Source: Neophaeotheca triangularis
Taxonomy: Eukaryota
NCBI GenBank assembly: GCA_054600435.1
Contig: BAAIJX010000020.1
Coordinates: 248,001-312,000, forward strand
DNA length: 64,000 nucleotides
Direction: 5' to 3'
How positions within the stretch are numbered: the stretch's first letter is position 1; every line of letters starts with the position of its first letter. The notes beneath the pieces were generated by a model. That model worked only from the letters and a program-made list of their open reading frames with translations, did not search any database and had not been told where the DNA came from. This document shows, one piece after another, positions 4,867 to 61,951 of this stretch. The translations under genes were made by a program, and so were the position numbers.

Positions 4867-6069
4867 TCAGTCGAACCATTGGACACTTCCCGGGCACTGC
4901 GGAGCATCAATAAAAAAATCGCCGAATGATGCCCTAGTGTCTAGGTCTGAAAGCTCAAAGTTTAGGTGCCCTGGCCCCAGTCCTTTGATGGATTCCGATG
5001 CTTCGTGAATGGGGTAAATCGCCGTGTGTACGTCGAGGCCACTGGGAAGACGTAAGGCGATGGCTTTTGAAACTCGCTGTCCGGCGTCTCTTTCCATGCC
5101 TATCTGGCTCATGCTGCGTTTGCGAATAATATTGTTGCAATGAATCTTCACGTGGCGTACCTCCTCCGAGGCATCGTACGTCGCCAGCCACTGTCTCAGG
5201 AATGGCTGTGGACCTATGTGCATGACGTACCAGAACAACCACGAGCGTCCTTTGGTAAGGTGCCTCGATTCGTCGCAAAAGCCACCGTCTACAGCATCTG
5301 CCCAATATCTAATGCCCCAAGTCTCCGGTGTCACCCAGCCACCCGTTGAAGCTAGGAGAGTAATCAACATGTTGAAACCTTCCAGAGCTTCGATGGATAG
5401 CTGGTTGATTAGCTGCAGTCGGTAATGCACAATTTTTCCTTCGCGTTTCTCTATGCTTCTAGGGACGGCGACTCGCGCCAATCTATGGTTGTCGCCGGCC
5501 AGTGTTGCCGTAGCCAGACTGAGCTTGCGAGAAAGACCGGATACTACGCTAAGAATTGCAGGGTCGTTGCTCGGGAGGTCATCGTAACGATCAATATTTC
5601 GGTCAATCAGGTGGAGCTGAAGAAGAGTCCTCAAGCCCAGAGTCACACTTTCCCGGACGTGATCGCCGGCTGGATGGTCGGAGGGTATCTTCCAAAGCCA
5701 TTCGTTAATGTTATGACCCGGAAATTTGAATCTTTGATAACGCCTGTTCGGATGCTCAATGAGCGCTGCTGCCATCCATCTGAATCGAAGCTCGTCCAGC
5801 CAGTGAAAATCGTGAGCCGCACCCGAGAGTTCAAGTACTCGACGAGGGATCACGGGAAATGTAGCTCTCGCCACTCCAGGGGCGATTGTCCCAATGTTGA
5901 CTGCGATAATGTCGTAGAGCCCATGACAGGTTTGGCGCATAGCATGCAAGGACGAAATGTTGCATTGTTGCAAAAGCAAGAGTACAACATCAGTCGGGAG
6001 ATCTGATAGCGACATTTTGGAACGAGTGCGAGTCACCGAGCTACGCCTATGTCTCTTGAAGGTTGGCAT
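4867..6069 (-). CDS. Hypothetical protein with N-terminal F-box-like motif
   Basis: 400-aa ORF; LSDLPTDVVLLLLQQCNISSLHAMRQTCHGLYDII resembles an F-box. Confidence 0.6.
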   Translation of the reverse strand: MPTFKRHRRSSVTRTRSKMSLSDLPTDVVLLLLQQCNISSLHAMRQTCHGLYDIIAVNIGTIAPGVARATFPVIPRRVLELSGAAHDFHWLDELRFRWMAAALIEHPNRRYQRFKFPGHNINEWLWKIPSDHPAGDHVRESVTLGLRTLLQLHLIDRNIDRYDDLPSNDPAILSVVSGLSRKLSLATATLAGDNHRLARVAVPRSIEKREGKIVHYRLQLINQLSIEALEGFNMLITLLASTGGWVTPETWGIRYWADAVDGGFCDESRHLTKGRSWLFWYVMHIGPQPFLRQWLATYDASEEVRHVKIHCNNIIRKRSMSQIGMERDAGQRVSKAIALRLPSGLDVHTAIYPIHEASESIKGLGPGHLNFELSDLDTRASFGDFFIDAPQCPGSVQWFD

Positions 6070-6597
6070 TCTCTTTGGTCGGGATTGCTGGCAATGGTTA
6101 ATGGGTTAAAAGGCTGCATTGGCTGATGCGTCTGCTGGAGAGGTTTGCGAAGTCTTCGACAGATAAGATGCTACAAGGAGTAGGCATAGATGGGGCCAAA
6201 AGTGTGGTTTTGAGAAGAGGTTGCTGCCTGAGTGGTAATGTAGCTACAACTGGGAAGAGCTTGGGGGGACAGCTTGAAGATCGTGCGAGTATTGGTACCT
6301 ACATTGAGTCAACAAGTTATTTTCAATGAAACAAGGCATTGATGGTATTCTCCTGCCAACACATTGGTAACGAGGGCGCACCTGGCAGAGATAACCGAAG
6401 GGAGGACGAACGCGAGGTCTCATTTCATCTCGGTGTTGACAAGCTAGCACGTGACTGCGAGTCTTGGTGAAGTCTTGGCAACGCAATCGCGGAAGCAGCC
6501 GTTCGAAATTCGCCCACCAACTTCGCACCTCCGAACGTCACGGCCAGCGACAGCGACAACAACCTCCCAGGACCAACCGAAGACATCCACCGACAAG

Positions 6598-20913: not shown

Positions 20914-23900
20914 CTACTGCGTCTTCCCCAAACTCTGCAAATTGACCAATTCAAAATACCTCCCCCCTTTCCCAATCAACTCGCCATGCGTCCCCTGCTC
21001 GACGATCCTACCCTGATCAAAAACATAAATCACATCGGCCTTTTGAATCGTACTCAGCCGGTGCGCGACGGCGACGGTGGTGCGGCCCTTGGCGGCCGAG
21101 TCCAGCGCCGCTTGCACAATCTTCTCCGACTCGCTGTCGAGAGCCGACGTGGCCTCGTCCAGGAGCAGGATTTTCGGGTTCCGGATCAGCGCTCGCGCGA
21201 TGGCGATGCGTTGTTTTTGCCCCCCGCTGAGCATGCTGCCCTTGCTGCCCACCAGCGTGTCGAAGGCTTCCGGCAGCGAGAGGATGAAGGTGTAGATGTT
21301 GGCGTCCTTGCAGGCTTGCACCAGGCGCGCCTCCAGCTCCGGGTTTTGCCCCACCTCGCTCTCTTCCACGTCGCCGCCGAGCCCGAGCAGGATGTTTTCC
21401 CGTATCGTGCCTTGGTAGAGGGTGGGTTCTTGCGAGACGAGCGCTAGGTGCGAGCGGTACGCGGCGATGTTGAGTTGGCTGATTTCTTTGCCGTCCACGT
21501 AGATGCCGCCTACCAGGGGGTCGTAGAAGCGTTCGAGTAGGGAGATGGTGGTGGATTTGCCGCAGCCGGAGCTGCCGACTAGGGCGATGTATTGGCCGGG
21601 TTGGACGCTGAGGTTGAGACCGCGAAGGACGGGTTGCTCGGGCCGGGTCGGGTAGCGGAAGTGCACGTCGCGGAATTCGACGGCGCCTTCGATTTGCGCG
21701 GGGATTTCTCCCTCGGGGCTCCAGCTGTCGATGCTGGGTTCGCGGTCGAAGAGCAGTTTGAGCTCTGCGGCGGCGTGTTTGGCTTTGCCCATGTCGGGGG
21801 CGAAGGAAAAGATTGTGCCGGCCGATTGTGCGCCGAAGATGATGGCGCTGAAGCAGAGGAAGAACTGGAACATGTTGTATTCGCCGTTGCCGATCAGAGT
21901 GCCGCCGTACCAGAAGCCGAGGGCGAGGCAGAGGAACATGAGGGACTGGGAGGCGGCGTAGAGGAGGCTGGATTTCAGGACCGAGTTGAGAGAGCGCTTG
22001 CCTTGGTCCACGAGTTGGTTGTGGTAGTGGACCCAGACGTCGTCTTCACGGGTTAGGGAAGCGACTGTGCGGATTGCACTGGTGGCTTCGCATGCGTAGG
22101 AGGCGGATTTCTCGTAGGCAACCTTGGCACGAGTCTGGAAGCGTGCGAGGATCCAGAAGCGGAAGAAACCGCAGCCGAGCACGATAGGAACGACCGACAC
22201 ACAGACCAGAGCCAGTTTCCAGCCAATGGCGAGGGAGACAGCAATGGCGGCGATGAGAGTGGTGAGAACCAGCAAGATCGTGCCGAGTGTGACGCCACTC
22301 ATACCTGCCAGGTGCGTTGTTTCCGTTGACAGGAAGCTAGTGAGTGCTCCAGCACTGTTGGTGTCGATGTCGAAGAAGGCAATGTCCTGGCGGAGCATTG
22401 CGCGGAAAGCCCGGTCTCTGGCGCGATGGACAAGACGCTCACTGCAGTATGCAAAAGCAGTACCCTGCGCCAAGAACGAGATGAGCTGCACCAACGCGAG
22501 CATAAAGTACATCCAGCTCCAGAAGTTGGCCTCGGAGCGGAGTCTGTCGTAGAAAGGTGGCGGGAGAGAAAGGGCGACAATACTCTTTGCGAAGAAAACG
22601 GCCTGTGTTGGGTTGCCTCCTCCGCATATGATGGCCCAGAAAAGGCCAAAGAGCATGATATGCCATTCCTTCCGGTTGAAAGATCCCACAAGCTTGATCA
22701 ACGTCCACAGTCCATATTTGGCGCTTCCCATCAACGCCGGCCGATCCTTCAGCGCAGCGCTAGAAGCTGACTGTCCAGTCTTGGTACGACCGAGCTCGAG
22801 ATCATTGGGATCAGTGTCAAAGGCATCGCCCTTCTCCGTCATGGGTGTTCCCACCACCTGACCATCTTTCTCGTAAAGCACAGGAATCTCATCTTCCTCC
22901 TCTTGCTCCTTCTGCGCGGCAATCTTCTGCGCCTCAACAAGGTTGTAGTACGCCTCGCCTCTCTCGAACAAAGCGTCATGAGTCCCTTGCTCCACGATGC
23001 GCCCCTGCTGCATGACGACAATATTGTCCGCAGTCTTGATCGTGCTGAGTCTATGAGCAATAACAATAGTCGTGCGCCCCTCGGCGGCCTTGTCGAGAGC
23101 AGCTTGCACGACGCCTTCACTCTTGGTGTCTAGAGCACTCGTCGCCTCGTCCAGTAGAAGAATCTTGGGATCGCTGACGATAGCCCTAGCAATCGCGATT
23201 CGCTGCTTCTGGCCACCGGAGAGCAGAAAGCCGCGCTCGCCGACGTTGGTCTCGTAGCCCTCGGGCAGAGAAGTGATGAAGTCGTGCGCGTTTGACATTT
23301 TCGCCGCATTCTCCACGAGCGACTGCGTTTCCTCTTCCGACATGGTTTCGTAGTGGGTGCCGATTAAACCGTGACGGATGTTGCCAGCAATGGAAGTAGC
23401 AAAAAGGGTAGGTTCTTGAGAGACGAGGGAAATTTGCTGGCGCAACCATTGCAAGTTCAAGTCTTGCACGTTGACGCCGTCGAGCAGCACCACACCGCCG
23501 ACTGGGTCATAGAACCGCTCAACGAGACCAACGATAGTACTCTTTCCGGAGCCAGAAGCGCCTACCAGCGCGGTCGACTTTCCAGCTGGAATCTTCAGAC
23601 TCACGTCCTCCATCACAACGACCTCGGGCCGTGAAGGATAGATGTGCTTGACGTTGACCAGCTCGAGCGTGCCCTCACAATGCTTCGGAACCTGTCCCTC
23701 CTTGGATCGTGGGTCCAATGGCGAGACACGATCGATGGTAGCGTAAATCTTGGACGCCGCAGCAACGGCAGTCGTAAAAGCCTGAATATTCGGCGCCACG
23801 TTGCCCAAAGCGAAAGCACCAATCATAATCGATAGCAGAATCGTGAGGACTTGCGAGAGGTTCATCTCACCGCCCACGAGGAATCGACTGCCCATCCAGA

Positions 23901-24984
23901 AAGATAGGGAGTAGTTGAGGTAGACGTAGCACATTAGGAATCCAATCATCGATCCCGTGATGGCTTTCATCTTGAACCCGCTCTTTTCGGCTTCGACCAA
24001 GTGCTTGTCGTACATGCGCGCCAACTTCTCCTGGGTGCCAAAGGCCGTCGCGTTGCGAATACTCGAAAGGGTTTCCTCGGCTACCGTACCCCCTTCGGCA
24101 TAAGACGCCAGAGACTGCTTGTTCCACTTGACAATGACGCGGCCGAGACCGCCCATGGTAACGAAGATGGCGACGATTGTGGATGTCAAAATGAGCGTCA
24201 ACTTCCAGAATTTGATGTAGCCGATGATGTAGGCAGTGATGAACGTCGCAAGAGCAGTTAGAGTCAGGCCAATCTTCTCGGAAATGCCATCCTGGACCAA
24301 ATTGGTGTCGGCGGTGATTCTGGTAGTGATTTCTCCTGCGCCGAGTTTGTCAAAGTAGGCGATGTTTTGCCGCAAAATGGCGGCTAGGTACTGCTCCCTG
24401 ATCTTTCCTGCAATGTGCTCGCCCGAATATATAAATCCAACGGTTGCAACGTAAATGGTGACGTACTCTCCGATAGCAAGGTAGACAAAGTACAGCGTCA
24501 GGCTGCTGATCTCGCTTGAAAGCTCGCTCCCATCTATGTTACCGTTGGTGAAACCTTGAAATGTACCAGCCAGCTCGCCGAAGATGATTGTCATGAGCGG
24601 CAAAACTGCGCCGCCTATGATTGCGCAAATGGAGGAAACCAGAATGATCCAAATGTCGTTCCACGTTGCATATCGAAAGAGCCCTTTGAACGTAACCTCG
24701 ACCGGGGGAATGTCCAGCTGCCTTCGTAATACGTGTGCCTCGTGTTCGGGCAGATGGGCAAACGCATCGTCTTCTAGCTCTTGAGTTTCCTTCTCCCCTC
24801 CATTCTGTGACCCCTTCTCTTTGGCGTCAATGACAGGCGCCGGAACCTCGCCTGTCTGGTTCGGAAAAGGCGCCTGTCCTAGATGAGCCTTTTGCGTATC
24901 GGCCGTGACAGTATCGCGCTCGGTAGGAGTGTCATTGCTCGAGCTGTTCGAGGCTCGCTTCTCGTTGTCTGCACCGATGATCAT
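20914..24984 (-). CDS. MDR1: Full-size ABCB/P-glycoprotein multidrug transporter (MDR1/AtrD-like), intronless
   Basis: 1356 aa, TMD-NBD-TMD-NBD; Walker A GASGSGKS and GSSGCGKS, LSGGQKQRIAIARA and ILLLDEATSALD twice each. Confidence 0.95.
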   Translation of the reverse strand: MIIGADNEKRASNSSSNDTPTERDTVTADTQKAHLGQAPFPNQTGEVPAPVIDAKEKGSQNGGEKETQELEDDAFAHLPEHEAHVLRRQLDIPPVEVTFKGLFRYATWNDIWIILVSSICAIIGGAVLPLMTIIFGELAGTFQGFTNGNIDGSELSSEISSLTLYFVYLAIGEYVTIYVATVGFIYSGEHIAGKIREQYLAAILRQNIAYFDKLGAGEITTRITADTNLVQDGISEKIGLTLTALATFITAYIIGYIKFWKLTLILTSTIVAIFVTMGGLGRVIVKWNKQSLASYAEGGTVAEETLSSIRNATAFGTQEKLARMYDKHLVEAEKSGFKMKAITGSMIGFLMCYVYLNYSLSFWMGSRFLVGGEMNLSQVLTILLSIMIGAFALGNVAPNIQAFTTAVAAASKIYATIDRVSPLDPRSKEGQVPKHCEGTLELVNVKHIYPSRPEVVVMEDVSLKIPAGKSTALVGASGSGKSTIVGLVERFYDPVGGVVLLDGVNVQDLNLQWLRQQISLVSQEPTLFATSIAGNIRHGLIGTHYETMSEEETQSLVENAAKMSNAHDFITSLPEGYETNVGERGFLLSGGQKQRIAIARAIVSDPKILLLDEATSALDTKSEGVVQAALDKAAEGRTTIVIAHRLSTIKTADNIVVMQQGRIVEQGTHDALFERGEAYYNLVEAQKIAAQKEQEEEDEIPVLYEKDGQVVGTPMTEKGDAFDTDPNDLELGRTKTGQSASSAALKDRPALMGSAKYGLWTLIKLVGSFNRKEWHIMLFGLFWAIICGGGNPTQAVFFAKSIVALSLPPPFYDRLRSEANFWSWMYFMLALVQLISFLAQGTAFAYCSERLVHRARDRAFRAMLRQDIAFFDIDTNSAGALTSFLSTETTHLAGMSGVTLGTILLVLTTLIAAIAVSLAIGWKLALVCVSVVPIVLGCGFFRFWILARFQTRAKVAYEKSASYACEATSAIRTVASLTREDDVWVHYHNQLVDQGKRSLNSVLKSSLLYAASQSLMFLCLALGFWYGGTLIGNGEYNMFQFFLCFSAIIFGAQSAGTIFSFAPDMGKAKHAAAELKLLFDREPSIDSWSPEGEIPAQIEGAVEFRDVHFRYPTRPEQPVLRGLNLSVQPGQYIALVGSSGCGKSTTISLLERFYDPLVGGIYVDGKEISQLNIAAYRSHLALVSQEPTLYQGTIRENILLGLGGDVEESEVGQNPELEARLVQACKDANIYTFILSLPEAFDTLVGSKGSMLSGGQKQRIAIARALIRNPKILLLDEATSALDSESEKIVQAALDSAAKGRTTVAVAHRLSTIQKADVIYVFDQGRIVEQGTHGELIGKGGRYFELVNLQSLGKTQ

Positions 24985-25848
24985 GTTGGGCGGGACGAAG
25001 CTTTCGTCGAGCGAAAGAGATAAGGATGGCCCAGGGCCTGAGGCTTTGTGGTCGTGACCACTCCAGTCTCCTGGGTGACGCCGGACTGAGCGAGGTGATG
25101 TTCGTGGTTGTGGTAGTAAAGACTGTTGCCAAGGCTAACGGTCAATCAATGAATGAATGTATGTATGGATGCCTTCGTCACGGTGCGGAACGTGGGTTGT
25201 GCCTTTCGCGATGTTGCCCTTACGGAGGTGGTAGAGCGGTTAAATTACGAAGTGAAGGAGGAGGAAAGAAGGTGAAGAATGAAAGAGGCGAGGGCATATA
25301 TGGAATGGGAAATGGTACATAAGTTAGTAGTTACTCATAGGGTGCCTTTTGTTGATGGCGACGGTAGCGTTTGCGAACGGATGCCGTACTTCCGTGCAAT
25401 GCACCAAGGGCGGGCGCTACCTCCTACCATGTCGGTAGAGATATTATTGTTCTTATTATGCAGTATCGTTATTCGTTACCTACCAAATCTGCTTTTGCTG
25501 TCGTCTTACCGACGCAAGATAAGTCAGCTCGAGCTGATGACGGCGGGGTTGACCGAGGAAGAAATGATGATAATAATTAACGTAGGAGAAGGGACGATCC
25601 AATGTGCGGATACCTAGAAGAGACAGGAGTTACAGAGTTTGTGAGTTATCGCAAGCTTTCCCACGTTTTGTCAGATGACAGGGAGGCTAACTTACCCACA
25701 TTAGACCACGCTAGACTCATTCTTGCCTCGGGTTCAATCTGACCGAACGCGAGGGGTAGCACACTAGCCAGATAAGGTAAGACTTTTCAGACTAGTAGGA
25801 GCGGCACCTGCGGAGTAGGGATGTTGATTTCGATGACCTTTCGATTTT

Positions 25849-25910
25849 ATGGTTAGACCATTAACCATTGACTATTAACTATTAACCTTTAACCATTAAG
25901 CTTTAACTAT
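25849..25910 (+). repeat. Left subterminal array of RIP-degenerate GACCATT heptamers
   Basis: atggtta-gaccatt-aaccatt-gactatt-aactatt-aaccttt-aaccatt. Confidence 0.85.
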
Positions 25911-25995
25911 AGAATAATGTCACTTAAATACTTTAGTAGCTACTAAAGTTGTTAAAGAGCTAAATAACTACTCCTTAAACTCCCCCTTAGGTATC

Positions 25996-26988
25996 TTATA
26001 AGCTCTTAAAGTAACGAGTGTGCCTTCCTTACTCCTCTAACTAATTGTTATCCTTATCCTCCTTAAGCTACTACTTATCCTTATTCTTAGACTCCTTAAT
26101 GTTAATCCTATAATGCTTAGAGTTGTCTATAATATATATAAGGTCCTTTTAGTTAGTGTTTATAATAAGCTAAGAAAGCTCATTACTATAGTTATTAATA
26201 GCTTAAAGGATTTAGAGAGCTCCTTTAGAAGTTTTAAAGGTAGCTTTAGCTAGAATAGGGACCTTTAAATAGGTATTAGACTTAGTAACTTTATAGAGGT
26301 TATTATCCTCCTTCTTACCCTTATGCTTAGACTATTACCTAAACTCTAAATATATGTTAGTTTTAAAGGTCTTAAAGCTTATCTTAAAGTTCTTAAACTT
26401 ACTAGTAGACTTAGAATACTTTACCTTAGAGCTCCTATAGATATAGTTTATATAGGATTCACTAAAGATATACTCCCTATTCTTATCTTTAGCTTTAATA
26501 TAGCTCCTAAACTTCCTATTACCCTTCTTATATAGGTTATAGGTATTATCTCTAGTAAGTACTTCCTTACTCTAGCTAATTTAGCTAAGTAAAGTAGGTA
26601 GGTAGTTAGTGAATATCGTAATATTAGTAGAATCTATACTACTATAGTTTAGCTCTATAATAGGGTCTAGTAAGGAATCTCTAAGGAAGACTTTAGTGAG
26701 AATGCGAGGGTAGTTACTAATATAGCTAGTATCTAGAGTAGCTTTAAAGATAGTCAATTTCTCTAAAGTCTAGATAGTAGCGACATTACCTATTACTTTA
26801 TTAGCTACTAAAGCTTCTAAACAATTATAAAAACTTTACTTTACTTATAGGTAGCCTTAAAAGAGAAGTTCTCCCCACCTTAGATAGTCTCTATCATTAT
26901 AGAACTACTTTAGGTGCTTTAAGATACTATACTAAAACTTTAATAGTAGGGGTAGTAATAGTAGTAGTAGTAGTAGTAGTGTAGATAT
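25996..26988 (-). pseudogene. RIP-inactivated second gene inside the hAT element, with a DUF3716-like Cys-rich motif and intron relics
   Basis: Reading TAT as TGT at 26413-26541 gives C-NP-C-KKGNGKF-xS-C-...-IFGxS-C-xN-C-IY-...-CS. Pro-rich N-terminus (ATA-TCT-ACA-(CTA)n). Relic splice signals ataagt/gtaagt and ctaac/ctaat...ag. Boundaries approximate. Confidence 0.6.
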
Positions 26989-27229
26989 TTTAGAAGAGAG
27001 GAAGTAGAAGAGAAGAAAAATCTAAGATATATTAATAACAACACTTACACTCATACTAGCCTAATCTAGTAGCCTATTATAAGGGATAACATAATAGGAA
27101 GTAGCCTAGGCTTCTATACTTTACTTATAGTCTAAGTTCACTTCTATATTAAAAGATATAGCTAATATAATACCTCTTAAAGCTTCTAGATAAGAATACA
27201 AACTCTAACCCTAACAGCTAAAGCTAAAC

Positions 27230-29268
27230 TAAATAGCTACTTTACTATTCCTAAAGCTTCTAAATCCTAAAATTCTAGCTCTTTAACCCTCTAAAGCTAG
27301 ATCTATAACTCTACTAAAGTCCTTAGAGTTATTTCCCTCTTACTTATCCTCCTTTATAAGAAACTATAGCCTATATTCACTATCTAAAGATACTACCCTA
27401 TCTCTAAAGTAGCTCTTATTATCTAGATCCCCCTCCTCCTATAGAAGCTTTAATAGCCCTAAACTCTTTAAATACTAGAATTTGAGGTTATAGTAGAGGT
27501 ATACTAGCTTATTAGCCTAGTTAAGAGTAAGTCTATTCCTAAGAAGGGAATAGATAGTACTATACTTAGACTAATTCCTCTCTACCTCCCTTAAAGAAGC
27601 TATAACTACTAAAGAAATCATAGCTATCTCTACTAGTTTAGAGGCTTTAGATTACTAAAGCTTCTACTAGCTATCTAATCCTATATATTTATAGGTAGAC
27701 TAGCTAAGTATATCACTAAAGATACCCTCTCTCTCTCTTAAAGACAGTAATTATCTAAAAAGCTTTCCTACTACTAAATTACCCTTAATAAAGCTATACT
27801 CTTTTACCTATTCTATTGTTTATCTAAGCTAACTATCTATAACCCTTAGTATAATCTTGTCCTCTTTAATTAGCTGAGTCTAGATCCTTAGGTCTATAAG
27901 GTAGGTAATACTCATTAGTAGATAGTATATTTACTATATTCTCTTCCTAAAAATATAAGAAAGAGCTTAAGAAGTATCCTAGCTAAATAGTATCTTTATA
28001 GCTTTTATTAGCTAGTAGAGATATCTATATACTTTGCTAAAGGAGGGAGACTCTATCTCTATTACTATAGTAATCTAGAGGATCGGTTGTAGTACTCTAG
28101 CTAGCTTATGTAGATTCTAGAAGTTGTTACTCTATAGTATCTAGTCTTTAATTATATCAAGATTCTATGTATCTATCCTTAATGGCCTTAGAGGTAATAG
28201 AGACTTATTAAGTAGAGTATACTAGATCCCCTTCTAGTTGTTAAGGACTAATTTAATATAGTATAGTTTGCCCTACTATCTTATCTTATTTAGTAGTTAA
28301 AAGGCTTTAAAGGTCTAGTCTTCTAGTATATTTTCTTTAACCTTTATAATAGCTATTAGATGTCTTTTAAACTATTTAGTAATATTGAGATAGCTCTTAA
28401 AGATAGGTTTTAGCTTAGGTATTTTAATCACATTATTACTAAGGAGGTTCAGAATATGAGAGTAGTAACTAATAGTAATTATCTTTAGAAACCTTTCCTT
28501 AACTAACCCCTAGCTACTTTTCATGTTAGATGTATTATCTATTATGATAGAGATAACCTTATTACCCTTAAGCTCTTTAATTACCTTATAAAGCCTATTA
28601 CTAATGTATTGCCTAGTATGCCTATCTATTACTATGTATTGTCCCTTTAGAAAGTATGTAGAGTCTTTAGTAATAGTAATATAGTTAATGATTACCTCTC
28701 CTCTAATATTTGTCTACTTATTAGACATAAGACTGATTCTCTTTACCTCTACTAAAGCTAGCGATACTTCTATTACTTTCTAGATATACATCCTATCTAG
28801 GATTAGGGTAGAGAGTACCTATCTTATTAGTAGTTTAAAGGCTAGTCTAAGGGCTTTAAAGAGCTTAAGAAGGCTAGGGTTTAATATTATCGAGAGTAAG
28901 AGGCTAAAAGAATAGATCCATTTAGTATAAAGGTTTTCGAGGTTTTACTAGTTTAATATAGATAGTCTATCTATAATAGGGCCTATATATTAAGAGCGCT
29001 TCCTCTTTACTTCTTAAGAGCTTTACTAGCTACTTTAGCTAAAGGATGTACTCTTAAAAAGGTTTAGCTAGGGAGTCTCTAGCTGCTATTATATAGCTAG
29101 TATCTCTAGAAGACTCTAACACTTTTTAAGATGTACTTTAAGCCTCTTAAGTCCTTTATTAGCCTAGGCCTCGAGGTAATATTTGTATATAACTTATAGG
29201 TGTTAAGATGCTAGGGTTAGAAAGACTCTAGTAAAGTGCTCCTATAAAGGGTCTCGCTATTTACCTAT
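27230..29268 (-). pseudogene. RIP-inactivated hAT transposase (BED finger, DUF659-type DDE core, C-terminal dimerisation domain)
   Basis: De-RIPed motifs: RDPLWEHF...CKYC...RLKxHLKKC (BED, about 29120-29260); SLMSDxWTNIRGE (about 28700-28740); ITDNASNMKSSW (about 28510-28545); GCCSHILNLL (about 28441-28470); TRW (about 28275-28285); SWW...ASSxEVERNWSKHxTIHSLLRNRL...KLVYLYYNL (27480-27672). 3' end approximate. Confidence 0.9.
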
Positions 29269-29416
29269 ATCTAATAACTTTAGTACTTCTTAAAGGCTGC
29301 TTTATAGACTATAGACAACTTTAATAACTTTAGAAGCTATCTTAGGGCTCTTAGTACCCTAAATAAGGATCACGTGAAATGGTCTAAGCTTGAATAGTTA
29401 ATAGCTAAATCGCTCA

Positions 29417-29472
29417 ATGGTTAGACTATTGACCATTGACCATTGACCATTAACTATTGACTATTGACCATT
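29417..29472 (+). repeat. Right subterminal array of GACCATT heptamers
   Basis: atggtta-gactatt-gaccatt-gaccatt-gaccatt-aactatt-gactatt-gaccatt. Confidence 0.9.
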
Positions 29473-29899
29473 CCAACATCCCTACTGCGGAGTCATGGGT
29501 GAGTCGGTGAGTCGGACCCGGGGATACCGATCAAGCCGACAATGGCCGGCCCGGCGATACCAGGAACCAAATCTCCGACCTCCTCTCCACTTCAATCCAT
29601 CCATGGAAATGAACAGCTCCCTGGGCTGTGACAGTCAATGGTGAACCCCCAATCTTCAGCTTGCATCGCCGCTCGTAACTCTGCCAGAAGCTCGACATTA
29701 TGACACAGTTGACTTGCTGAGGCTACATACAGCAAGTTGCCGGGAAAGAAGTGAATGCAGTACTGGACAAACCTCATCCTCCCATCCTGCATCTTCTCCC
29801 CATCCTTTCACTTTTGAACTTGTCTCAGAACTTCTCTCTCTCTCTCTCTCCATCCGCTGAGTCTTCGAACATATGATCCAGTACGCCCTGGCAATAGGT

Positions 29900-34028: not shown

Positions 34029-35009
34029 TCACATGACCCAGCAACCCACCCTCTTCTTCCCCTTCCCCTCCTCCTCTTTCTTCCCCATCTCCCCTTCCTC
34101 CCCCTCCTTCCCTCCCCCTCCTCCACCACCCCTATGCGGCCTAGCCCACCCCCCAACCCTCCTACCATTCTGATACCGAAACAACCCCTGATACGTCTGA
34201 TCGCGATAAACCCCACTCCCCGCTAACCCCGCGCCTACAACTGGATTCCCCGCTCCCGCCATGGGGCCCGGCCCGGCACTGCCCAGTGGCCCTCCGCCGC
34301 GTAGTGCCGAGAACGGGTATCCTTGCCTCATTGCTGAGGGGTCGAATGGGCCGGGTGGGAAAGGGGCGGGGCCGAGGGGGAAAGACGCAGGTAGGCCGGG
34401 GCTAGGTTGCGGTATGAGGCTTTGGCCGAAGGGGGTAGAGGGGTTAGGGGGCTGGTATGGGTCGAGTGGGTATTGTTGCTGGGGTTGTTGGAAGGGTGCG
34501 GAGGGCTGTTGGTAGGGTGGCGGCTGCGGGTTCTGCAGCGGGTAAGGGGTCGCGGGGTTGGGATTCGCAGGAGGTGTTTGAGCGGGTTGCCGTTGATACG
34601 GCTGTGGGGCCGGTTGCTGTGGCTGCTGGTAAGGCTGTGAGGGTGCTTGCCGTTGTTGCGGCGGTTCTTGCTGCTGGAAAGCTGGTCGAGGCGGATTCTG
34701 CGTCGACGCAACTGGCGCCTGTTGATATGGTTGCCCGGAGCCAGCCGGAAAACCGGCGCTCGGTGTCCAACTCGAAGGATAACTGGAAGAAGAGCTTTGC
34801 GGAAGCTGGCCCGGACGACTGGGTGCTTTTGAAGGCAGTCCCTGTCGAGCTTCGGGTGGTAGCTGGGCGCGTATTTGGTTTTGCAGGTCAGGGGGTAAGT
34901 CTTTGAGGTCTTTTGGTGGAGCTGGGCCTTGGCTGGGTGCACGACTGGGGGCTGGAGTGTCGTCCGGGAGGTTGAGGAGTTCGTCCAGGAGGGTGTCTTT
35001 GGTTGACAT
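34029..35009 (-). CDS. Pro/Gln-rich hypothetical protein (probable start MSTKDTLLDELL)
   Basis: Long open frame of low-complexity P/Q sequence ending in CWVM (CaaX-like); no family recognised. Confidence 0.55.
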   Translation of the reverse strand: MSTKDTLLDELLNLPDDTPAPSRAPSQGPAPPKDLKDLPPDLQNQIRAQLPPEARQGLPSKAPSRPGQLPQSSSSSYPSSWTPSAGFPAGSGQPYQQAPVASTQNPPRPAFQQQEPPQQRQAPSQPYQQPQQPAPQPYQRQPAQTPPANPNPATPYPLQNPQPPPYQQPSAPFQQPQQQYPLDPYQPPNPSTPFGQSLIPQPSPGLPASFPLGPAPFPPGPFDPSAMRQGYPFSALRGGGPLGSAGPGPMAGAGNPVVGAGLAGSGVYRDQTYQGLFRYQNGRRVGGWARPHRGGGGGGGKEGEEGEMGKKEEEGKGKKRVGCWVM

Positions 35010-35594
35010 GGTGCGGTGGAAGGGGGTTGAGGTTGGTGGAGGTTTGATTGAGACTTTTCTTCGATGGTGTGGAGAAGTAGGGATGATGAGGGCAGGTAGA
35101 AGATTGGTGATGCAGAGGGTTGTCGAATAGTCGGGAGAATGCGAAAGGGGCTGAGGTGGGTGGAAGTAATGGTCCACGACGCTCACCTCCTGTCAATGAT
35201 CTTGTTGCCAACTGTTTGACGTGTTCGGTATACTGAATGCTAGAGTGACGGAAATTCAGAACCTTGATGATACTACTTTGTGTTTGCCTAGAGCAATGCG
35301 CTATCGTCGGGGTGTTAGCGTTGTATACCATAGTGCGCTATGTGCGTCGTTGATTCGTAGCAGGATGATGATTTGACTTTGTCCGTCACCCTTCTTTCGG
35401 CCGTCGTCATACCTGCCGTTAGTCTGCCCGGTGAATTGCTATCGGGTCTGCGTTTTCCAGGTCGATCATCGTCAATCGATCGTGGCAGCAGCATACCAAA
35501 TCCCCCCAACACCATACATCCGTCACCAGAGCTTGGTGTCCATTCTCCTTTCTCGTAAAGGCTCCGGTGGCTGGCGATAGGAATGGCTCGACCC

Positions 35595-38104: not shown

Positions 38105-39187
38105 CTATACTCGCGGCGGTTCATCGTTCAACGGCTTGGGCTTCAGCAACAGCATGCTGTCCACCGTGCCGGGCGGCTCATCACTCTGCATTCGTGATGC
38201 AAGCTGCTCCGCAAACAGACCAGTGACAGATCCATTGACAGAAGCCTCTCGTACACCTCTCAGTTGGTCAAATGGCTCGAGCATCTCTTCCAAGTCTTCG
38301 GCAACCTTGGCAACGCTGCCCTTTTGCCATGAAGCCTCGCGCTTGATATCGTCCAAAATCGCATTCCCATTGCTAACGCGGATAGCTACTCTTGATAAAA
38401 TACGTGTCTCGGTATCAAAACCATCATTCTTCCCGCCCGTATCATCATCCCTCGCCCCGCCATCCCCAGGCTTAAGCACATTCACCAATCTCTGCACCTG
38501 CTGTTTCAACCCCTGCGTCAATCCCCTCCCACTAACATTAAACTTAATCATCCCCGTGTACGAATCCACATGATCAACATGCACAACCACCTTCTTAATC
38601 AACCGCATATACCTCTCAGGCAACAACTCCAGAAAGTCATAACTCCGACTCGGCGCCAGCCCACTCGGCAACAGCCAGCGGAATCGGAAGGTAATAGCCG
38701 CATACGTGACGAACAGCAGGAAAGTATTACTCCCGTAGACCAGCTCCGCGCACTCATCGTGCAATTGTTGACATACGCCGAAGACGCTGACGTTTCCCCG
38801 CTGCCAGACGATATTGTTGGGTTTCCTTGAATTAGAATTGGGAGCGGTAGCGTTGTCATCCGCTTTCGGCACCATCATGCCCTTTTCCCCTCTCTTTTGC
38901 ACGGCGCTGAAGTTGCGGGCATGGCTCGCTAGGGGGTTGGTGTCGTTGAGTTCGCGGGTCCGGGGGAGTAGATAGCTGAGAATTTCTTGTCGGAGCTCGA
39001 GGGGCAGTTTGAAGAGAGGAAAACGTGGTTTGAAGCTTGCTGGGGAGCGGGAGCGTTGTTCTAGTTCGTCCCAGCTTTCGTGACGGTGGTTGAGCGGTGG
39101 GCGGAAACGGGCGGAGTTTGTGATGGTTGTGGGCGAGAAGTGGGGGGATATGTCGTAGTCGCGGCAATTGTAGTGACCGGTGTCCAT
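38105..39187 (-). CDS. Fungal hypothetical protein with an F-box-like (FPLFKLPLELRQEI) motif
   Basis: 360-aa ORF with coding-like composition and VCQQLHDECAELVYGSNTF motif. Confidence 0.7.
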   Translation of the reverse strand: MDTGHYNCRDYDISPHFSPTTITNSARFRPPLNHRHESWDELEQRSRSPASFKPRFPLFKLPLELRQEILSYLLPRTRELNDTNPLASHARNFSAVQKRGEKGMMVPKADDNATAPNSNSRKPNNIVWQRGNVSVFGVCQQLHDECAELVYGSNTFLLFVTYAAITFRFRWLLPSGLAPSRSYDFLELLPERYMRLIKKVVVHVDHVDSYTGMIKFNVSGRGLTQGLKQQVQRLVNVLKPGDGGARDDDTGGKNDGFDTETRILSRVAIRVSNGNAILDDIKREASWQKGSVAKVAEDLEEMLEPFDQLRGVREASVNGSVTGLFAEQLASRMQSDEPPGTVDSMLLLKPKPLNDEPPRV

Positions 39188-39681
39188 GATACAGTCAGAA
39201 CTAGTAGGTATTGGCAGGACAGGTAGCAGTAGTAGTTTACGTCTAGAGTGACAAGGTACCTTAGATCTCTGGGTTGTTTCGAGGATGATGTCGCTTTATT
39301 AGTGGCCCAAGCTTCTACCTGATTGAGACATCGACATTGCTTCCCCTTTCGACTTGATATCTCTCCTTCTTTCTATCAAACTCCACCAAACATGCTCGAA
39401 TCCGCAAGAATCGCCCTTCGAGGGCAGGCAAATGCCGAAAAGCTTGATGCGAGGCGTGATGGACGGTGCCTTCCCACTTATAGCCCCAACGGAGGGGTTG
39501 ATGCTATTTGAGCCTTTCAATCACCCCTGAACAGCCTCAATAAGCAGTTCAGCGCCAGTAAACTATCGAAAGGGGAAGACGTAGAGGGGAGCCTATAAAG
39601 ACTTTTGAAAGAGAACGAATCGATCAGACGGCCTACACCATCACCCAGAAAGTGCCGATTCCAATCAGAAACGACGGTCCA

Positions 39682-40734
39682 ATGCCCACCATGTACTTCG
39701 ACTTCCTACCCAACGAAATCCTGACCCAGATCTTCCTCCACCTCCCCACCGTCTACTCAGCCCTCGCTCTCTCCTCAACAAGCCAGACTTTCCGCTCCGT
39801 CTACAACTCCTCCAAGCGGCTCGAAATCCTCAGCCAAGCAATCGAGCGCGAATACGGCCCCAGCGACGACATGATCCAACTCCTCACCCACAACACCTCC
39901 CAACCCGCCCACCTCCACCGCAACGCACCCCTATCCGATGCCCTGCTCAAGCAGATGGTCTCAATCGGCCACACGGCCTCCAAATACACCGAGCTCTACC
40001 CCTCCAAGAAATGGGCCTACCCCAATCACGCCGACCGCCGCCTGCTGACACCACCCGAGTCCCGCCGGCTGCGACAAGCTCTCTACCGCCTCTGGCTCTA
40101 CACGGCAGCTTTCCACACCCCCTCTCACGTTCGCACCGCCCGCAACCTCCCCCAAACCCTACAAACCCGCGCCGCGCTACTACACAACTACACCACAGCC
40201 TCTCTAGCCAGCATGCTGGACCTGCACCTCCTCCTCCGCGAACTAATCGCCCACGAAATCTGCCCAAGCAACGGCTCCGTGCGTCGTGAATTCCGTTCCC
40301 GCCACCCAGACTCTTCCCACCAACTACTCTTCAACCCTTCCAACCCCTCACAACACCAACACCACCATCAACACCCCTTCCTCCCCTCCCCCTCCACATC
40401 CACAAAACCCACCTCCCTCGACACCAAATACCACGCCACCCCCCACCACGAACCCGGCTTCGAAGGCTGGGGCGACGAAATCCAACACTACTACATTGTG
40501 GAAGACGTGCTGAAACTCGACCCGGCGCAATTGCTCTTCTTGCGGGACAAATGTCCACTGAAATGGCAAGTCGAGAGTTTTGTCATGGGATTGGGCGAGT
40601 GGTTTGAGCAGAATGGTGAGACTTTTTCCGAAACGCTTGGGTTTGTGCTTGCGCAGAGGGGGGTTGAGTTGGGCGAGGTGAGGGAGGCGGTTGAAGAAGG
40701 CGGATTGGGGGTTGTTTGTGGTGGAGAGGTTTGA
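39682..40734 (+). CDS. F-box domain protein
   Basis: MYFDFLPNEILTQIFLHLPTVYSALALSSTSQTF F-box; GWGDEIQHYYIVEDVLKLDP C-terminal motif. Start codon uncertain (39682 or 39691). Confidence 0.75.
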   Translation: MPTMYFDFLPNEILTQIFLHLPTVYSALALSSTSQTFRSVYNSSKRLEILSQAIEREYGPSDDMIQLLTHNTSQPAHLHRNAPLSDALLKQMVSIGHTASKYTELYPSKKWAYPNHADRRLLTPPESRRLRQALYRLWLYTAAFHTPSHVRTARNLPQTLQTRAALLHNYTTASLASMLDLHLLLRELIAHEICPSNGSVRREFRSRHPDSSHQLLFNPSNPSQHQHHHQHPFLPSPSTSTKPTSLDTKYHATPHHEPGFEGWGDEIQHYYIVEDVLKLDPAQLLFLRDKCPLKWQVESFVMGLGEWFEQNGETFSETLGFVLAQRGVELGEVREAVEEGGLGVVCGGEV

Positions 40735-58072: not shown

Positions 58073-61000
58073 TCAGCATCGCAGCAGCGACCGGCGGCCA
58101 CCCGCTACCAACTCTCCAGCCGCTGCTCTCGCCTCCCATGGGTTTTCAGCCGTCGGATTATGACCTCTACTTTTGCTCCTTCGCCTGCGCACCGACTTCA
58201 GCACCACTGGACTAAGCAACTCGGCGTCCAAATCCCCGGCCCTGTTTGATCTTGATCGTGGTCTTTCCGCAGCAGCGGTGACAACGACGCCCGGCGAGTT
58301 CTCCGTCGCCGCAACCAGCGCGCCCGACATGGCGAAGCCGCTTTCTCCGCCGGATGACGCTCCGTGTCGGGGGCGGCGTGGTTTCTGGCCCGGCTTGAGT
58401 TTCCGCCCAAAAGTGCCATACCTTCTGCGCGGAGGCAGGGGCACGACCGTGTCGGCGGGGCTGAGGTGATCCCAGATGGGATGTGGGGTAGTTTCTGGCT
58501 GTTCGGCTTCTTGCCTGTCGTCAGAGTGTTGCGGGAGGTTTTGGCTGGCAGAGGGTGAGGACGTAGGGGAATGTCTCCTCACGGAGAGTCTTTCCTGCAC
58601 CCACACTCTGCCCCTGCTTCTGCTCTGATCGCCAGGCCCGATGGGTCTCAGACAAGGGCGTGGGTTGGCTTCAACTCCGTCGCCCCAGACGCAAGATCTC
58701 GCGTTACGAATCCAATTCCCCCCAGCCCTCTCCCTCCCTCCGTCCACGTCGTCCGCGTCATCCTCCCCCTCATCACCACAAGCCCTCCACCTCCCTCGCC
58801 TCAACCCCAACCCGAAAGGAAACTCAGGCAAAGCAAAACACGCCCTCGCCTGAGAATGATACCCACCCCGCCAGTTCCCCCTCGCCTTCAAGGAACCTCC
58901 ACGAGCAATCTGACCTTGACCGGTCTGTGGAGGCCGCCACGGACGTCCCACCCATTGAAAGTTCTGAAACCCAGCCTGCTCCGACGGTGGCTGTTCAGGC
59001 TGTCGCTCGGGGAAGATCCGGTCCGTGGCCGTGTTGGCGTTGGCGTAGTCGGGGCGCTGAGCGGAGCTTTGACTGCGAGGGTTTTTGGCGGCTCTCCGAG
59101 CCCCTGAGGTCCTGGAAGGCGTTAATGTTCGCGCTCGCCAGCCCCTTGCTGCGGAAGTGGGAGGATAGTTTTCCCCTTGGGGCTGCCCTGTCACAGTACT
59201 GTCGGCTTGGAGCCGTTGTAGGGCTTCTATTCGTGATTCCGCTGGTCGAAGAGCTGGTCGCCAGGGGATTGAGGACGCTGGTGGAGTGAGAACTGGTTGC
59301 AAAGGAGTCGAGGACGCTGTCAAAGTTGCAGTTCCCTGTGAGGGAGTCTCGGACGCTGTTGGTGTCGAGATTGGCTGCAAAGGAGCCGAGGACCCTGCCA
59401 GCTTTGAATCATTCTGCAAGAGCGTCTCGGAAGATGTCAAAAATGAAGTTGGCAGCAACGGAGTCGAAGGCCCTACCACAGTTGTAATCGAATCACGCCG
59501 AATCGGGCACTTGTGCTCCGGGCTCGAGCAAGCAGCGCCCGCAAGATCGATGTCCAAGTGGCTCAAGACGCATCTCACGGCGCTTGGGGCTTCTGTCTCC
59601 AGCGTGTCGTCTACGGGAAAATTGTTGGCTGCCAGTTCTTCTTTCTTGAGCCGGTCGGGCAGAGAGTGTGGGGTATGGATGACTTGGTAGCGGTAGCCAC
59701 GGAGCAGCGGAGGACGTCTCAAGCGGAATTTTTGAGCCAACGCAAGTAGTGCTCTCGGGTTCCTTGTTGGCGTTTGGCAGCTTGAAGGTATCTTCGCTGG
59801 TGAGCTTTGTAGCGTGGAGGTGGCGTCGTTGGTAGCATTTTCGCCGTCGGGGCCGCCTTGAGTGTGGCCTAGGACTGGTTCGGGGTAGTGACCACTACGC
59901 TCCTTCTGGACGTGAAAGGCGGAGTTCTTGTCATCACTCTTTCCGGGAGACCTGCCAGACAGCGAAAATTGGCTCCTTGGAGGTAAACCAAAATCTTGCC
60001 TGGCCTGCCTCTCACGGACCTCACCTTCCAGCCTCCCCCCTTCAAAGATTTCCCCTCCCCCTTGCCTCATCTCCGCCACGCACCGCTCATCAACCCAGAC
60101 AGTCCCTCTATCCCAATGCCCATACTCACGTCTCTCGCGTCCAGCCCCAGTAGTCCCGCCAATCCCAGACCCCAATCCCGATCCCCGAACCTCCACAAAG
60201 CCAAACAGAGACAAAGCAAGCGCCTCCTCCACCCCAACACTACCCGATCCCCGGACAACGTCCACGCGAGAATCTTCGTCTACTTCGGCATCAGAGTCAT
60301 CACTGAACACTTCAACAATCCGGCCACTGTCTCCGTTACCACCACGGACTTCACCTTCATAACCCCTACCACCCTCGAGTCGAAAACTCGCAGCTTCGGC
60401 ATTCAAGCTCACCGACCTTCCACCAACTGCGGCTTGCCCAGGGTGTGAGAACGACGACTCACCGCGCCAAGCAGGCTGCACGGTTCCCGACCCAGCAAGT
60501 CGACCGGACTCGGATTGCCAGTCAACTTCCCCATAGCTCATAGCCCCAGCCCCGTCTCTAAGCCCACTCACTGCAGCCACCGGTGCTCGAGACGAAATCG
60601 CGGCCATGGCTAGAGTAGGGCGAGAAGCCAAATGCACAAAAGCGGTAGTAGAGGTGAGAGCAGCAGCGCGGTGGGCGCCGGGACAAGTGCATTTGTTCGC
60701 TGCATCGAGACCAGTGTACTGGAACCATCGCTGTGCTGAACTCGGATTGCTGGACGAAGCGCCGGCGGTTGCGAAGACCCGGTCGTCCGCTGTCCGCGTT
60801 CCGACCGTGCTTAGATCTGGGTAGCTGTTCATCGGGAAGGGGTTGGAGACAAAGCGGCGGCTGGGTTGGGGGATCTGTGGAGGCATTGGGAGCTGTTGGT
60901 TGGGTGGGAAGTAGCTGTTGGCCGCATAGCTCGCTGCTGACATGCCCCCCAAGTCCCCGTAGCTGCGTCCCGTCAAGCTCACGGCTGGGTTCGAGTGTTG

Positions 61001-61951
61001 TCGGGTCATGAGGACTCGACCGTCTATCGCGGTGCGGTATACCGGGGGCGGTGGCGGTGGTGGCAGTGCTGGGTACTACCCTCCCGCTGTTGGATTGGCC
61101 ATGGGTACGCGGCCGGGATCGTAGTTGTGATGGTTTACAGGGCCGGAAAGTTGGCCCTGACCGTGACCGTAGACTTGATCCTGACGGAAACTCTGACCGT
61201 AGCCCTGCCCCAAGGTGTATCGACTTGGACCGCAATCCTGACCTTGAGCCAGAACATAACCTTGATCGTTCCTCCTCACATTCCCGCTCACGTGCCCCTG
61301 ACCACCATCCTGAACGGATCCAGAACCATTCCCCCTCTGATCCCTCCTCCCATCAGCAATCCTCCGACCGAAATCGGGCACAGGACCAGTCCCATACCCC
61401 GGCGCGAAAACCTCACGGCCACTGAAACAAGCCACGACTCCAGCAAGCTCGGCACCGGGCGCCCATGTCTGCCCGACAGTCCTGTCCAACCAATCGTCGA
61501 TCCCACCGTAACAAGCAGGGCTACAGTGGTCAGCGTCCTCTTCCTCGCGAAGTAAGATTTTCCTCGCCGGTATGAACGTGCTGTGAGCCGTCGCGTCAGC
61601 GAACCCAGCCGTCTTGAGCCCGGCAGCAGAACCAGCGCCAGCAATCGCATCAATACCATCACCGGAACCAAGCGCGAACTTCAGCTTCAGATCAACGGGA
61701 CTGCCAATTGGACTGTCGACCGGACTTCCAATCGCACTGTGTATCACACAGTCCTTTATACCACCCGTACCACCATCAATCATACCCTCGTTCGCGCCAC
61801 ATTTCGCACTATCCTTCGCAGTGCAGTCAATCCAACCGTGACAACCAGGGCCGCAGCGGTGACCCGCCTCACATAGAAAACTTCTACAACTTCCACAATT
61901 GCTGCGACTGCTACAGCTGACACTGCCGCTACTCGTCGGATATGGTGGCAT
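58073..61951 (-). CDS. Long low-complexity hypothetical reading frame interrupted by one in-frame TAG at 61076-61078 (possible pseudogene)
   Basis: ORFs 61076-61951 and 58073-61009 share a frame and the 66 nt between them are open (YPALPPPPPPPVYRTAIDGRVL); an acceptor ctaac...cag lies just upstream of ATG 61951. No family recognised. Confidence 0.5.

Follow-up and report, generated by a model that had tools for sequence, protein, structure and literature searches.

A DUF3716-family gene relic inside a RIP-inactivated hAT transposon of Neophaeotheca triangularis

Results

A hAT element with perfect ends and a transposase relic

The window analyzed here is the whole stretch of 64,000 nucleotides from Neophaeotheca triangularis contig BAAIJX010000020.1 (248,001 to 312,000), and all positions are counted from its first letter. 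An AT-rich island, with a GC content of 0.30 in 26001–29000 as against about 0.54 around it, marks a hAT element of about 3.7 kb at 25816–29484. Three features that characterize hAT transposons were found together at this place. An 8-bp target-site duplication, CTGCGGAG, flanks both ends of the element and can be read directly at 25808–25815 and at 29485–29492. The terminal inverted repeats (TIRs) are short, being 11 bp in length and perfect, with TAGGGATGTTG at 25816–25826 on the plus strand and its complement at 29474–29484 on the minus strand, and an exact search of the 64-kb window returned these two matches only. Finally, the catalytic region of a transposase is represented by the domain DUF659 (PF04937), which scores above its cut-off and is among the Pfam markers that define fungal hATs (PMC5751038). 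That the insertion was a real transposition event follows from a clean empty site in the public sequencing data X2, whose flanks resemble the window at about 97%: in one contig, 25808 is connected to 29486 and 3677 bases are skipped, which correspond to the element plus one copy of the duplication, with 8 letters in common at the joint. The evidence from public runs, here and below, consists of contigs only, at 80% likeness.

RIP acts on repeated DNA, and its signature is confined to the element: the TA/AT index is 1.95 and the (CA+TG)/(AC+GT) index 0.31 inside, as against 0.72 and about 1.17–1.18 in the flanks, and the signal changes abruptly at the TIRs. Tandem Repeats Finder identified a heptamer array just inside each TIR, ACCATTA in 7.3 copies at 25857–25907 on the left and GACCATT in 7 copies at 29424–29472 on the right, both reported on the plus strand. 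The two arrays thus have the same orientation and are not inverted, and we regard them as candidate subterminal binding sites.

The transposase is preserved as a relic on the minus strand, and its core part spans 27478–29007, with the true start further upstream. With stops read as X, DUF659 is found at 28785–28396 (E 2.2e-15, 57.1 bits, cut-off 34.7). A weak match to the profile Dimer_Tnp_hAT (PF05699) at 27651–27484, which stays below the cut-off of 21.4 (13.8 bits, E 0.051), is collinear with DUF659, lies in the expected place, and runs to the end of the profile (27484). These matches are in the minus-strand frame that begins at 29484 (frame 0), which has the fewest stops of all six frames, namely 95 in 1223 codons as compared with 108–201 in the other five, and all of these stops are TAA or TAG. 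In the transposase core, the stop density of this frame is 0.071 (comparison value 0.147). Cys is found at 4 of its 1223 codons and Tyr at 71. hAT transposases usually carry a BED-type zinc finger in their N-terminal part; a Tyr-x2-Tyr pair, followed by His and Cys, can be seen by eye in this frame at 29100–29230 (minus strand), and the N-terminal transposase frame with this pair gave no Pfam match. Searches with the RIPed transposase relic returned no match in the PDB by sequence, and no relative among the 7999 candidates scored in a word-indexed protein search.

Elsewhere, the window contains housekeeping genes of the usual fungal kind, namely those for a Gcn2-like kinase, an alpha-actinin-like protein, RNA polymerase I A49, PIG-P, an ABC1 kinase, and Cut12, and long open reading frames at 58073–61075, 4867–6105, 34029–35192, and 38105–39295 (all minus strand) and at 39562–40734 (plus strand) had no Pfam family at E <= 1e-5. 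A full-size ABC transporter with two ABC_membrane and two ABC_tran domains is encoded at 20914–25134 on the minus strand. The element begins, at 25816, about 680 bp upstream of the 5' end of this gene (about 25134), and it is likely that the insertion, which is absent in X2, lies in the promoter region of the transporter.

A second coding relic with homology to a DUF3716 protein

Downstream of the transposase, between its 3' end and the left TIR, lies a further coding relic that is co-oriented with the transposase and in its frame. Such a gene relic inside a hAT had been proposed in a first-pass annotation made from the sequence alone, and TIRs, target-site duplication, DUF659, and reading frame all agree with it. 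From the frame-0 read-through and the codon list, the relic probably extends over 26335–26988 (minus strand, about 217 codons). Between 26769 and 26215, frame 0 contains three stop-poor stretches of 62, 78, and 39 codons, and the stop density of this frame in 26772–26392 is 0.024, as against 0.07–0.25 in the other frames. The 78-codon stretch, which is free of stops (26571–26338, minus strand), contains nine TAT codons. Six of them, within 26416–26541 and starting at 26541, 26532, 26502, 26454, 26445, and 26418, are spaced x2, x9, x15, x2, and x8. The six-codon pattern that had been described before is therefore real, whereas two of its details needed correction: the long gap is x15 and not x14, and the motif between the second and third TAT codons is today KKGNRKF and not KKGNGKF.

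To identify the relic, the 494-residue read-through of 27477–25996 was used as phmmer query (HMMER) against a library of 1,835,955,588 representatives with a threshold of E <= 0.001. Exactly one match was obtained, termed P0003 (E 1.7e-6), in which residues 236–358 of the query align without gaps over 123 residues to residues 29–151 of P0003. This homology core, which includes the DUF3716 domain, corresponds to 26404–26772 on the minus strand and was also supported by BLASTP (31 of 86 residues identical, no gaps, E 1e-16) and by codon comparison. P0003 is a 155-residue open reading frame with a Met start, a singleton cluster and an orphan on a contig of 1083 bp, and it is a clear DUF3716 protein (PF12511 at residues 103–149, E 3.7e-14, 52.8 bits, cut-off 22). 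Its domain cysteines C106, C109, C119, C135, C138, and C147 have a spacing identical to that of the six TAT codons and stand opposite them in the codon alignment; at the positions of the pattern C-x2-C-x9-C-x15-C-x2-C-x8-C, Cys is absent today, and all six codons are TAT, each compatible with an earlier Cys under RIP. The 78-codon stretch has three other TAT codons, two of which are aligned with Trp and Asp, respectively, and the third of which falls outside the alignment. The three in-frame stops of the aligned stretch face Trp, Gln, and Arg, all of which can be converted to stops by RIP. Altogether, 36 of the 123 codon positions are identical, and the number rises to 61 when positions compatible with RIP transitions are added. 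In 10,000 shuffles, the corresponding mean was 19.7 (sd 3.9) and the maximum 36. The sequence GNGKF is that of P0003, and the Arg of GNRKF in the relic faces the Gly of this motif.

The raw RIPed peptide did not match PF12511 when compared with Pfam at E <= 10, and thus does not qualify as a family member by the profile, which is expected, as all domain cysteines are gone; across the domain, the assignment comes from homology to P0003 as a confirmed member. An absent DUF3716 match had been named beforehand as an observation against this identity. Such absence is what the raw peptide shows, but the relative P0003 is clearly DUF3716, and the suggested DUF3716-like identity stood up to the E-value, the six cysteines opposite TAT, and the RIP-compatible positions alike. 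Descent of the segment from a DUF3716-family gene is thereby as well established as sequence data permit, and what survives is a relic and not a functional member of the family. With 95 stops in the common frame and all six domain cysteines read as Tyr, transposase and DUF3716 gene are both dead, and this copy of the element has no function as a gene.

Further relatives were searched for with the relic and with P0003. The RIPed peptide of the second gene had no relative among 275 candidates in a word-indexed protein search, and its 78-residue part gave a best score of 0.89 and no family in the ESM Atlas. P0003 itself matched DUF3716 clusters of the Atlas in 19 of 30 cases, and the three nearest, which we take as a lead only, are 154–208 residues long and from Ascomycota. 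Pattern searches of metagenome contigs with P0003 or its alignment resulted in 46 pattern matches in one search and 594 in another, none of which was confirmed; the same was true for 120 prokaryote and 214 viral contig matches, where fungal DNA is not expected. A PDB sequence search with P0003 returned chance-level rows only (E 0.28 or more), and an AlphaFold2 model of P0003 calculated without alignment was unusable (mean pLDDT 37.4).

Gene structure and relation to the transposase frame

The relic stays in the one frame from 26988 to a double stop, TAA/TAG, at 26337–26332. Candidates for its start are an ATA at 26988 and an intact ATG at 27054. Just after the ATA, seen on the minus strand, lies a (TAG)14 microsatellite (26944–26984, repeat given for the plus strand, tandem repeat search), which translates today as poly-Leu; the Pro-rich start that had been assigned to the gene is this repeat, and Pro is one possible earlier reading. 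The read-contig placement flagged 26944–26988 as a skipped repeat, and contigs break there. At 27054–27040 (minus strand), the intact in-frame ATG is directly followed by the donor-like hexamer GTAAGT; the site lies just outside the block that is missing in X2 (see below), and it may possibly be the true start with a first intron, or the arrangement may be due to chance. The earlier description of the gene as intron-containing was not borne out: no intron is needed, as 123 codons align collinearly with P0003 in a single frame and with no gap, and the GTAAGT behind the ATG at 27054, the only canonical donor-like sequence seen, is upstream of the interval for which introns had been suggested.

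A spacer at 26999–27477 separates the hAT C-terminal domain from the 961-bp block described below. It has no Pfam match, and its frame 0 contains 12 stops in 163 codons (0.074), as compared with 22 and 26 in the other minus-strand frames (0.135 and 0.16). As the frame is common to both relics and the stop density of the spacer is like that of coding sequence, a fusion with the transposase has to be considered. With about 200 codons, the relic is of similar size to the 193-residue protein REP9-1 of Zymoseptoria tritici (PMC8232023), to P0003 with its 155 residues, and to the nearest Atlas DUF3716 clusters (154–208 residues).

Copies of the element and of the DUF3716 block in public sequencing runs

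In the sequencing data X1, 61 contigs could be placed, of which 28 have a likeness of at least 99%, 17 of 95–99%, 14 of 90–95%, and 2 of less than 90%. Their differences from the window are A>G in 48 cases, T>C in 38, C>T in 41, and G>A in 44, with 7 others. Foreign flanks were found at loose ends of X1 contigs, two different ones at 25812/25816 and one behind 29484, and further contigs of X1 and X2 have loose ends that begin exactly at 25816. Because the X1 contigs differ almost solely by transitions and have other flanks, the element family is multi-copy and its copies were RIPed independently; 25816–29484 of the window is one RIP-inactivated copy of this multi-copy hAT transposon. One X1 contig joins 25951 to 29115 and skips 3163 bases, and so represents a non-autonomous member of the family with an internal deletion. 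No contig of a third run, X3, could be placed, which is no evidence of absence. In X2, one contig contains the element end 25816–25884 at another site, and its loose end behind 25884 is far more G+C-rich than the window there. X2 may therefore contain a relative that was RIPed to a lesser degree, which would be the most suitable source of the ancestral sequence.

A related copy in X2 differs from the window in precisely the region of interest. In a 266-bp contig that is homologous on both sides, 26037 and 26999 are separated by 17 unrelated letters, so that a block of 961 bp (26038–26998) with the DUF3716 relic is omitted. This form is either a deletion derivative with filler or the ancestral state. 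The block is RIPed like the transposase, as the density of CpA plus TpG is 19.8 per kb in the block and 25.5 per kb in the transposase, as against 110–154 per kb in the flanks, and the summed contig depth in X1 is 253–607 for the block versus 131 for the flanks, a depth that is derived from contigs and is not a copy number. The DUF3716 gene thus belonged to the mobile, repeated unit, of which several diverged copies exist in X1. Absence from other copies had been named in advance as speaking against a gene of the element, and here the outcome is divided: the second open reading frame lies inside the TIRs in the window, and depth and RIP level place it there in several copies of X1 as well, but it is absent in the one related X2 copy.

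Discussion

A gene of the DUF3716 family was part of a mobile hAT unit, and its role there can be read in several ways. The reading that we tentatively prefer, at somewhat less than even confidence, is that it was a second gene carried by the element, expressed separately from the transposase, whose product may have been a small and probably zinc-binding DNA-binding protein serving the element. Rich in Cys, this product would either regulate the transcription of the element or act as a helper that binds element DNA, in analogy to the DUF3716 proteins of REP9 and to the second, DNA-binding protein of PIF/Harbinger. A separate gene is indicated by P0003 as a free open reading frame of 155 residues, by the gene size of the block that is missing in X2, and by the 154–208 residues of the Atlas neighbors. 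Points against the proposal are the X2 copy without the block, the fact that P0003 is a single orphan relative, and the frame that the relic has in common with the transposase. As to the function of the family, the three remaining REP9 genes of Z. tritici were induced when REP9-1 was overexpressed (PMC8232023). PSC58 of Fusarium graminearum has a DUF3716 domain and has been called the orthologue of NCU05718 of Neurospora crassa (PMC10776026), a protein that directly binds double-stranded TTAGGG repeats, with no annotated DNA-binding domain and with the binding part unmapped (PMC4650311). In Colletotrichum sublineola, a strain-specific orphan gene encodes PF12511 (PMC5225507).

The binding of NCU05718 and the TAGGG start of the TIR suggested that a DUF3716 protein might recognize TAGGG or TTAGGG in the element, and this idea was not supported, as neither motif is enriched relative to dinucleotide shuffles: TTAGGG occurs 5 times versus 4.3 expected, a number reached in 438 of 1000 shuffles, and TAGGG 18 times versus 15.4 expected, reached in 254 of 1000.

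Could the similarity to DUF3716 be an accident of composition, in that Tyr codons of AT-rich, RIPed DNA happen to be spaced like the Cys of a motif, with no DUF3716 ancestry? Tyr is indeed common in the frame (71 of 1223 codons), a Pfam search with the raw peptide at E <= 10 did not yield DUF3716, and 263 of 20,000 residue shuffles produced a loose version of the Tyr-spacing pattern, so that the pattern taken by itself is only suggestive. However, the match to P0003 was obtained at a library-wide E of 1.7e-6, P0003 is itself a clear member of the family, the alignment is gap-free over 123 codons with each of the six Cys opposite TAT, and no shuffle came near the 61 RIP-compatible positions. 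As far as sequence statistics go, the chance reading is refuted, and we consider it extremely improbable. Another explanation starts from a single gene, in which the DUF3716 part would be a DNA-binding domain fused to the C-terminus of the transposase. The common frame of the DUF659 match, the hAT C-terminal match, and the DUF3716 part would fit such a fusion, as would the stop density of the spacer (0.074), which is about that of the transposase core and lower than in the other minus-strand frames, and the fact that the frame has no stops other than TAA and TAG, which are the ones produced by RIP. On the other hand, frame agreement by chance is expected in one of three cases, the weak Dimer_Tnp_hAT match reaches the end of a profile that is normally C-terminal in hAT transposases (PMC3441728), and P0003 is free-standing; among 168 candidates of a word-indexed search, no P0003-related protein of 273–2000 residues was found, which is weak evidence in the same direction. 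We regard a fusion as quite unlikely.

A more serious competitor of the two-gene reading is that one hAT lineage took up a host DUF3716 gene, or a copy of it, and amplified it as a passenger with no role in transposition. Units bounded by hAT ends that contain foreign genes are in print, an example being ToxhAT (PMC12506042), stand-alone DUF3716 genes are widespread in Ascomycota according to the Atlas matches and to PMC8232023, and the X2 copy that lacks exactly 26038–26998 and has 17 unrelated letters instead could be taken for an element before such an uptake. This X2 form can equally be a deletion derivative with filler, though, and X1 also has an internally deleted copy. Moreover, the block is a whole, co-oriented unit of gene size and no fragment, and an unrelated class II element also carries DUF3716 genes, one of which induces the genes of that element (PMC8232023). 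A passenger gene is a real possibility, if in our judgment still a doubtful one, and we continue to lean, with the reserve stated above, toward a second gene that served the element.

Two-gene organization is well known from other cut-and-paste transposons, namely PIF/Harbinger, with a Myb-like protein and a transposase, MuDR, and En/Spm. As in the hAT element described here, a second element-encoded protein stands beside the transposase, which in PIF/Harbinger binds DNA. In contrast, the superfamilies and the folds of the second proteins are unrelated, and the need for the second protein was proven experimentally in these systems, while the relic of the window is known from sequence alone. 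Closer in gene content is REP9 of Z. tritici, an IS3EU-like class II transposon that exists in multiple copies, on which RIP has acted in sister species, and that likewise is a DNA transposon bounded by TIRs and target-site duplications with small DUF3716 genes beside the transposase (PMC8232023). The 193 residues of REP9-1 are near the approximately 200 codons of our relic. REP9 differs in having an rve/IS3EU transposase, a 6-bp target-site duplication, 43-bp TIRs, a length of 7.9 kb, and four genes, two of them DUF3716 (PMC8232023), whereas the element of the window has a hAT transposase, an 8-bp duplication, 11-bp TIRs, a length of 3.7 kb, and one DUF3716 gene; this comparison is one of descriptions and not of protein sequences. 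PSC58 and NCU05718 are related to the relic through the family, which is stated for PSC58, and the DNA binding of NCU05718 is the only functional lead; both are host genes, and the accessible text of the respective papers does not report them in transposons (PMC10776026; PMC4650311).

The fungal hATs Restless, Tfo1, Crypt1, Drifter, and VdHAT1/3 resemble the element in their 8-bp target-site duplications, their short TIRs, their size of about 3 kb, and a transposase with a C-terminal hAT dimerization region, and differ in that a single open reading frame is described for them in the available part of the source (PMC3441728). Relative to these classical fungal hATs, the element of the window contains about 1 kb of additional sequence between transposase and TIR, with the DUF3716 relic in it, and its TIR starts with TAGGG as compared with CAGNG (PMC3441728). 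Among the matches listed in the literature on second open reading frames of hATs, there was no hAT with a DUF3716 or other accessory gene, and the same applies to the accessible text of PMC3441728, PMC5872316, PMC5751038, and bioRxiv 10.1101/2025.11.13.688278. The first-pass annotation had presented the arrangement as a candidate for an undescribed system, which is too strong, as DUF3716 genes in a class II transposon have already been published with REP9 (PMC8232023); for the hAT case, we found no earlier report in the sources covered, as far as their text was accessible.

The hAT transposons have been treated as single-gene elements, and no function has been assigned to the large fungal family DUF3716. 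The evidence for their combination comprises one dead copy and one orphan relative, and the hypothesis we offer is that of a small Cys-rich DNA-binding regulator of the element. Similar relics are probably under-annotated, because RIP turns Cys codons into Tyr codons and thereby hides Cys-rich domains from profile searches. It is conceivable, although we consider it unlikely at present, that DUF3716 is a transposon-borne DNA-binding and regulatory module that was repeatedly recruited by unrelated fungal class II transposons, and that many of the scattered, strain-specific DUF3716 genes of Ascomycota are derived from elements or domesticated, possibly including NCU05718. If this were true, REP9 and the hAT family of the window would be two cases of such recruitment, and with the latter, a two-gene hAT with a second protein acting on its own element would be known for the first time. 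As a second independent DUF3716 gene inside a class II transposon, after REP9, the relic suggests that this domain and mobile DNA are connected.
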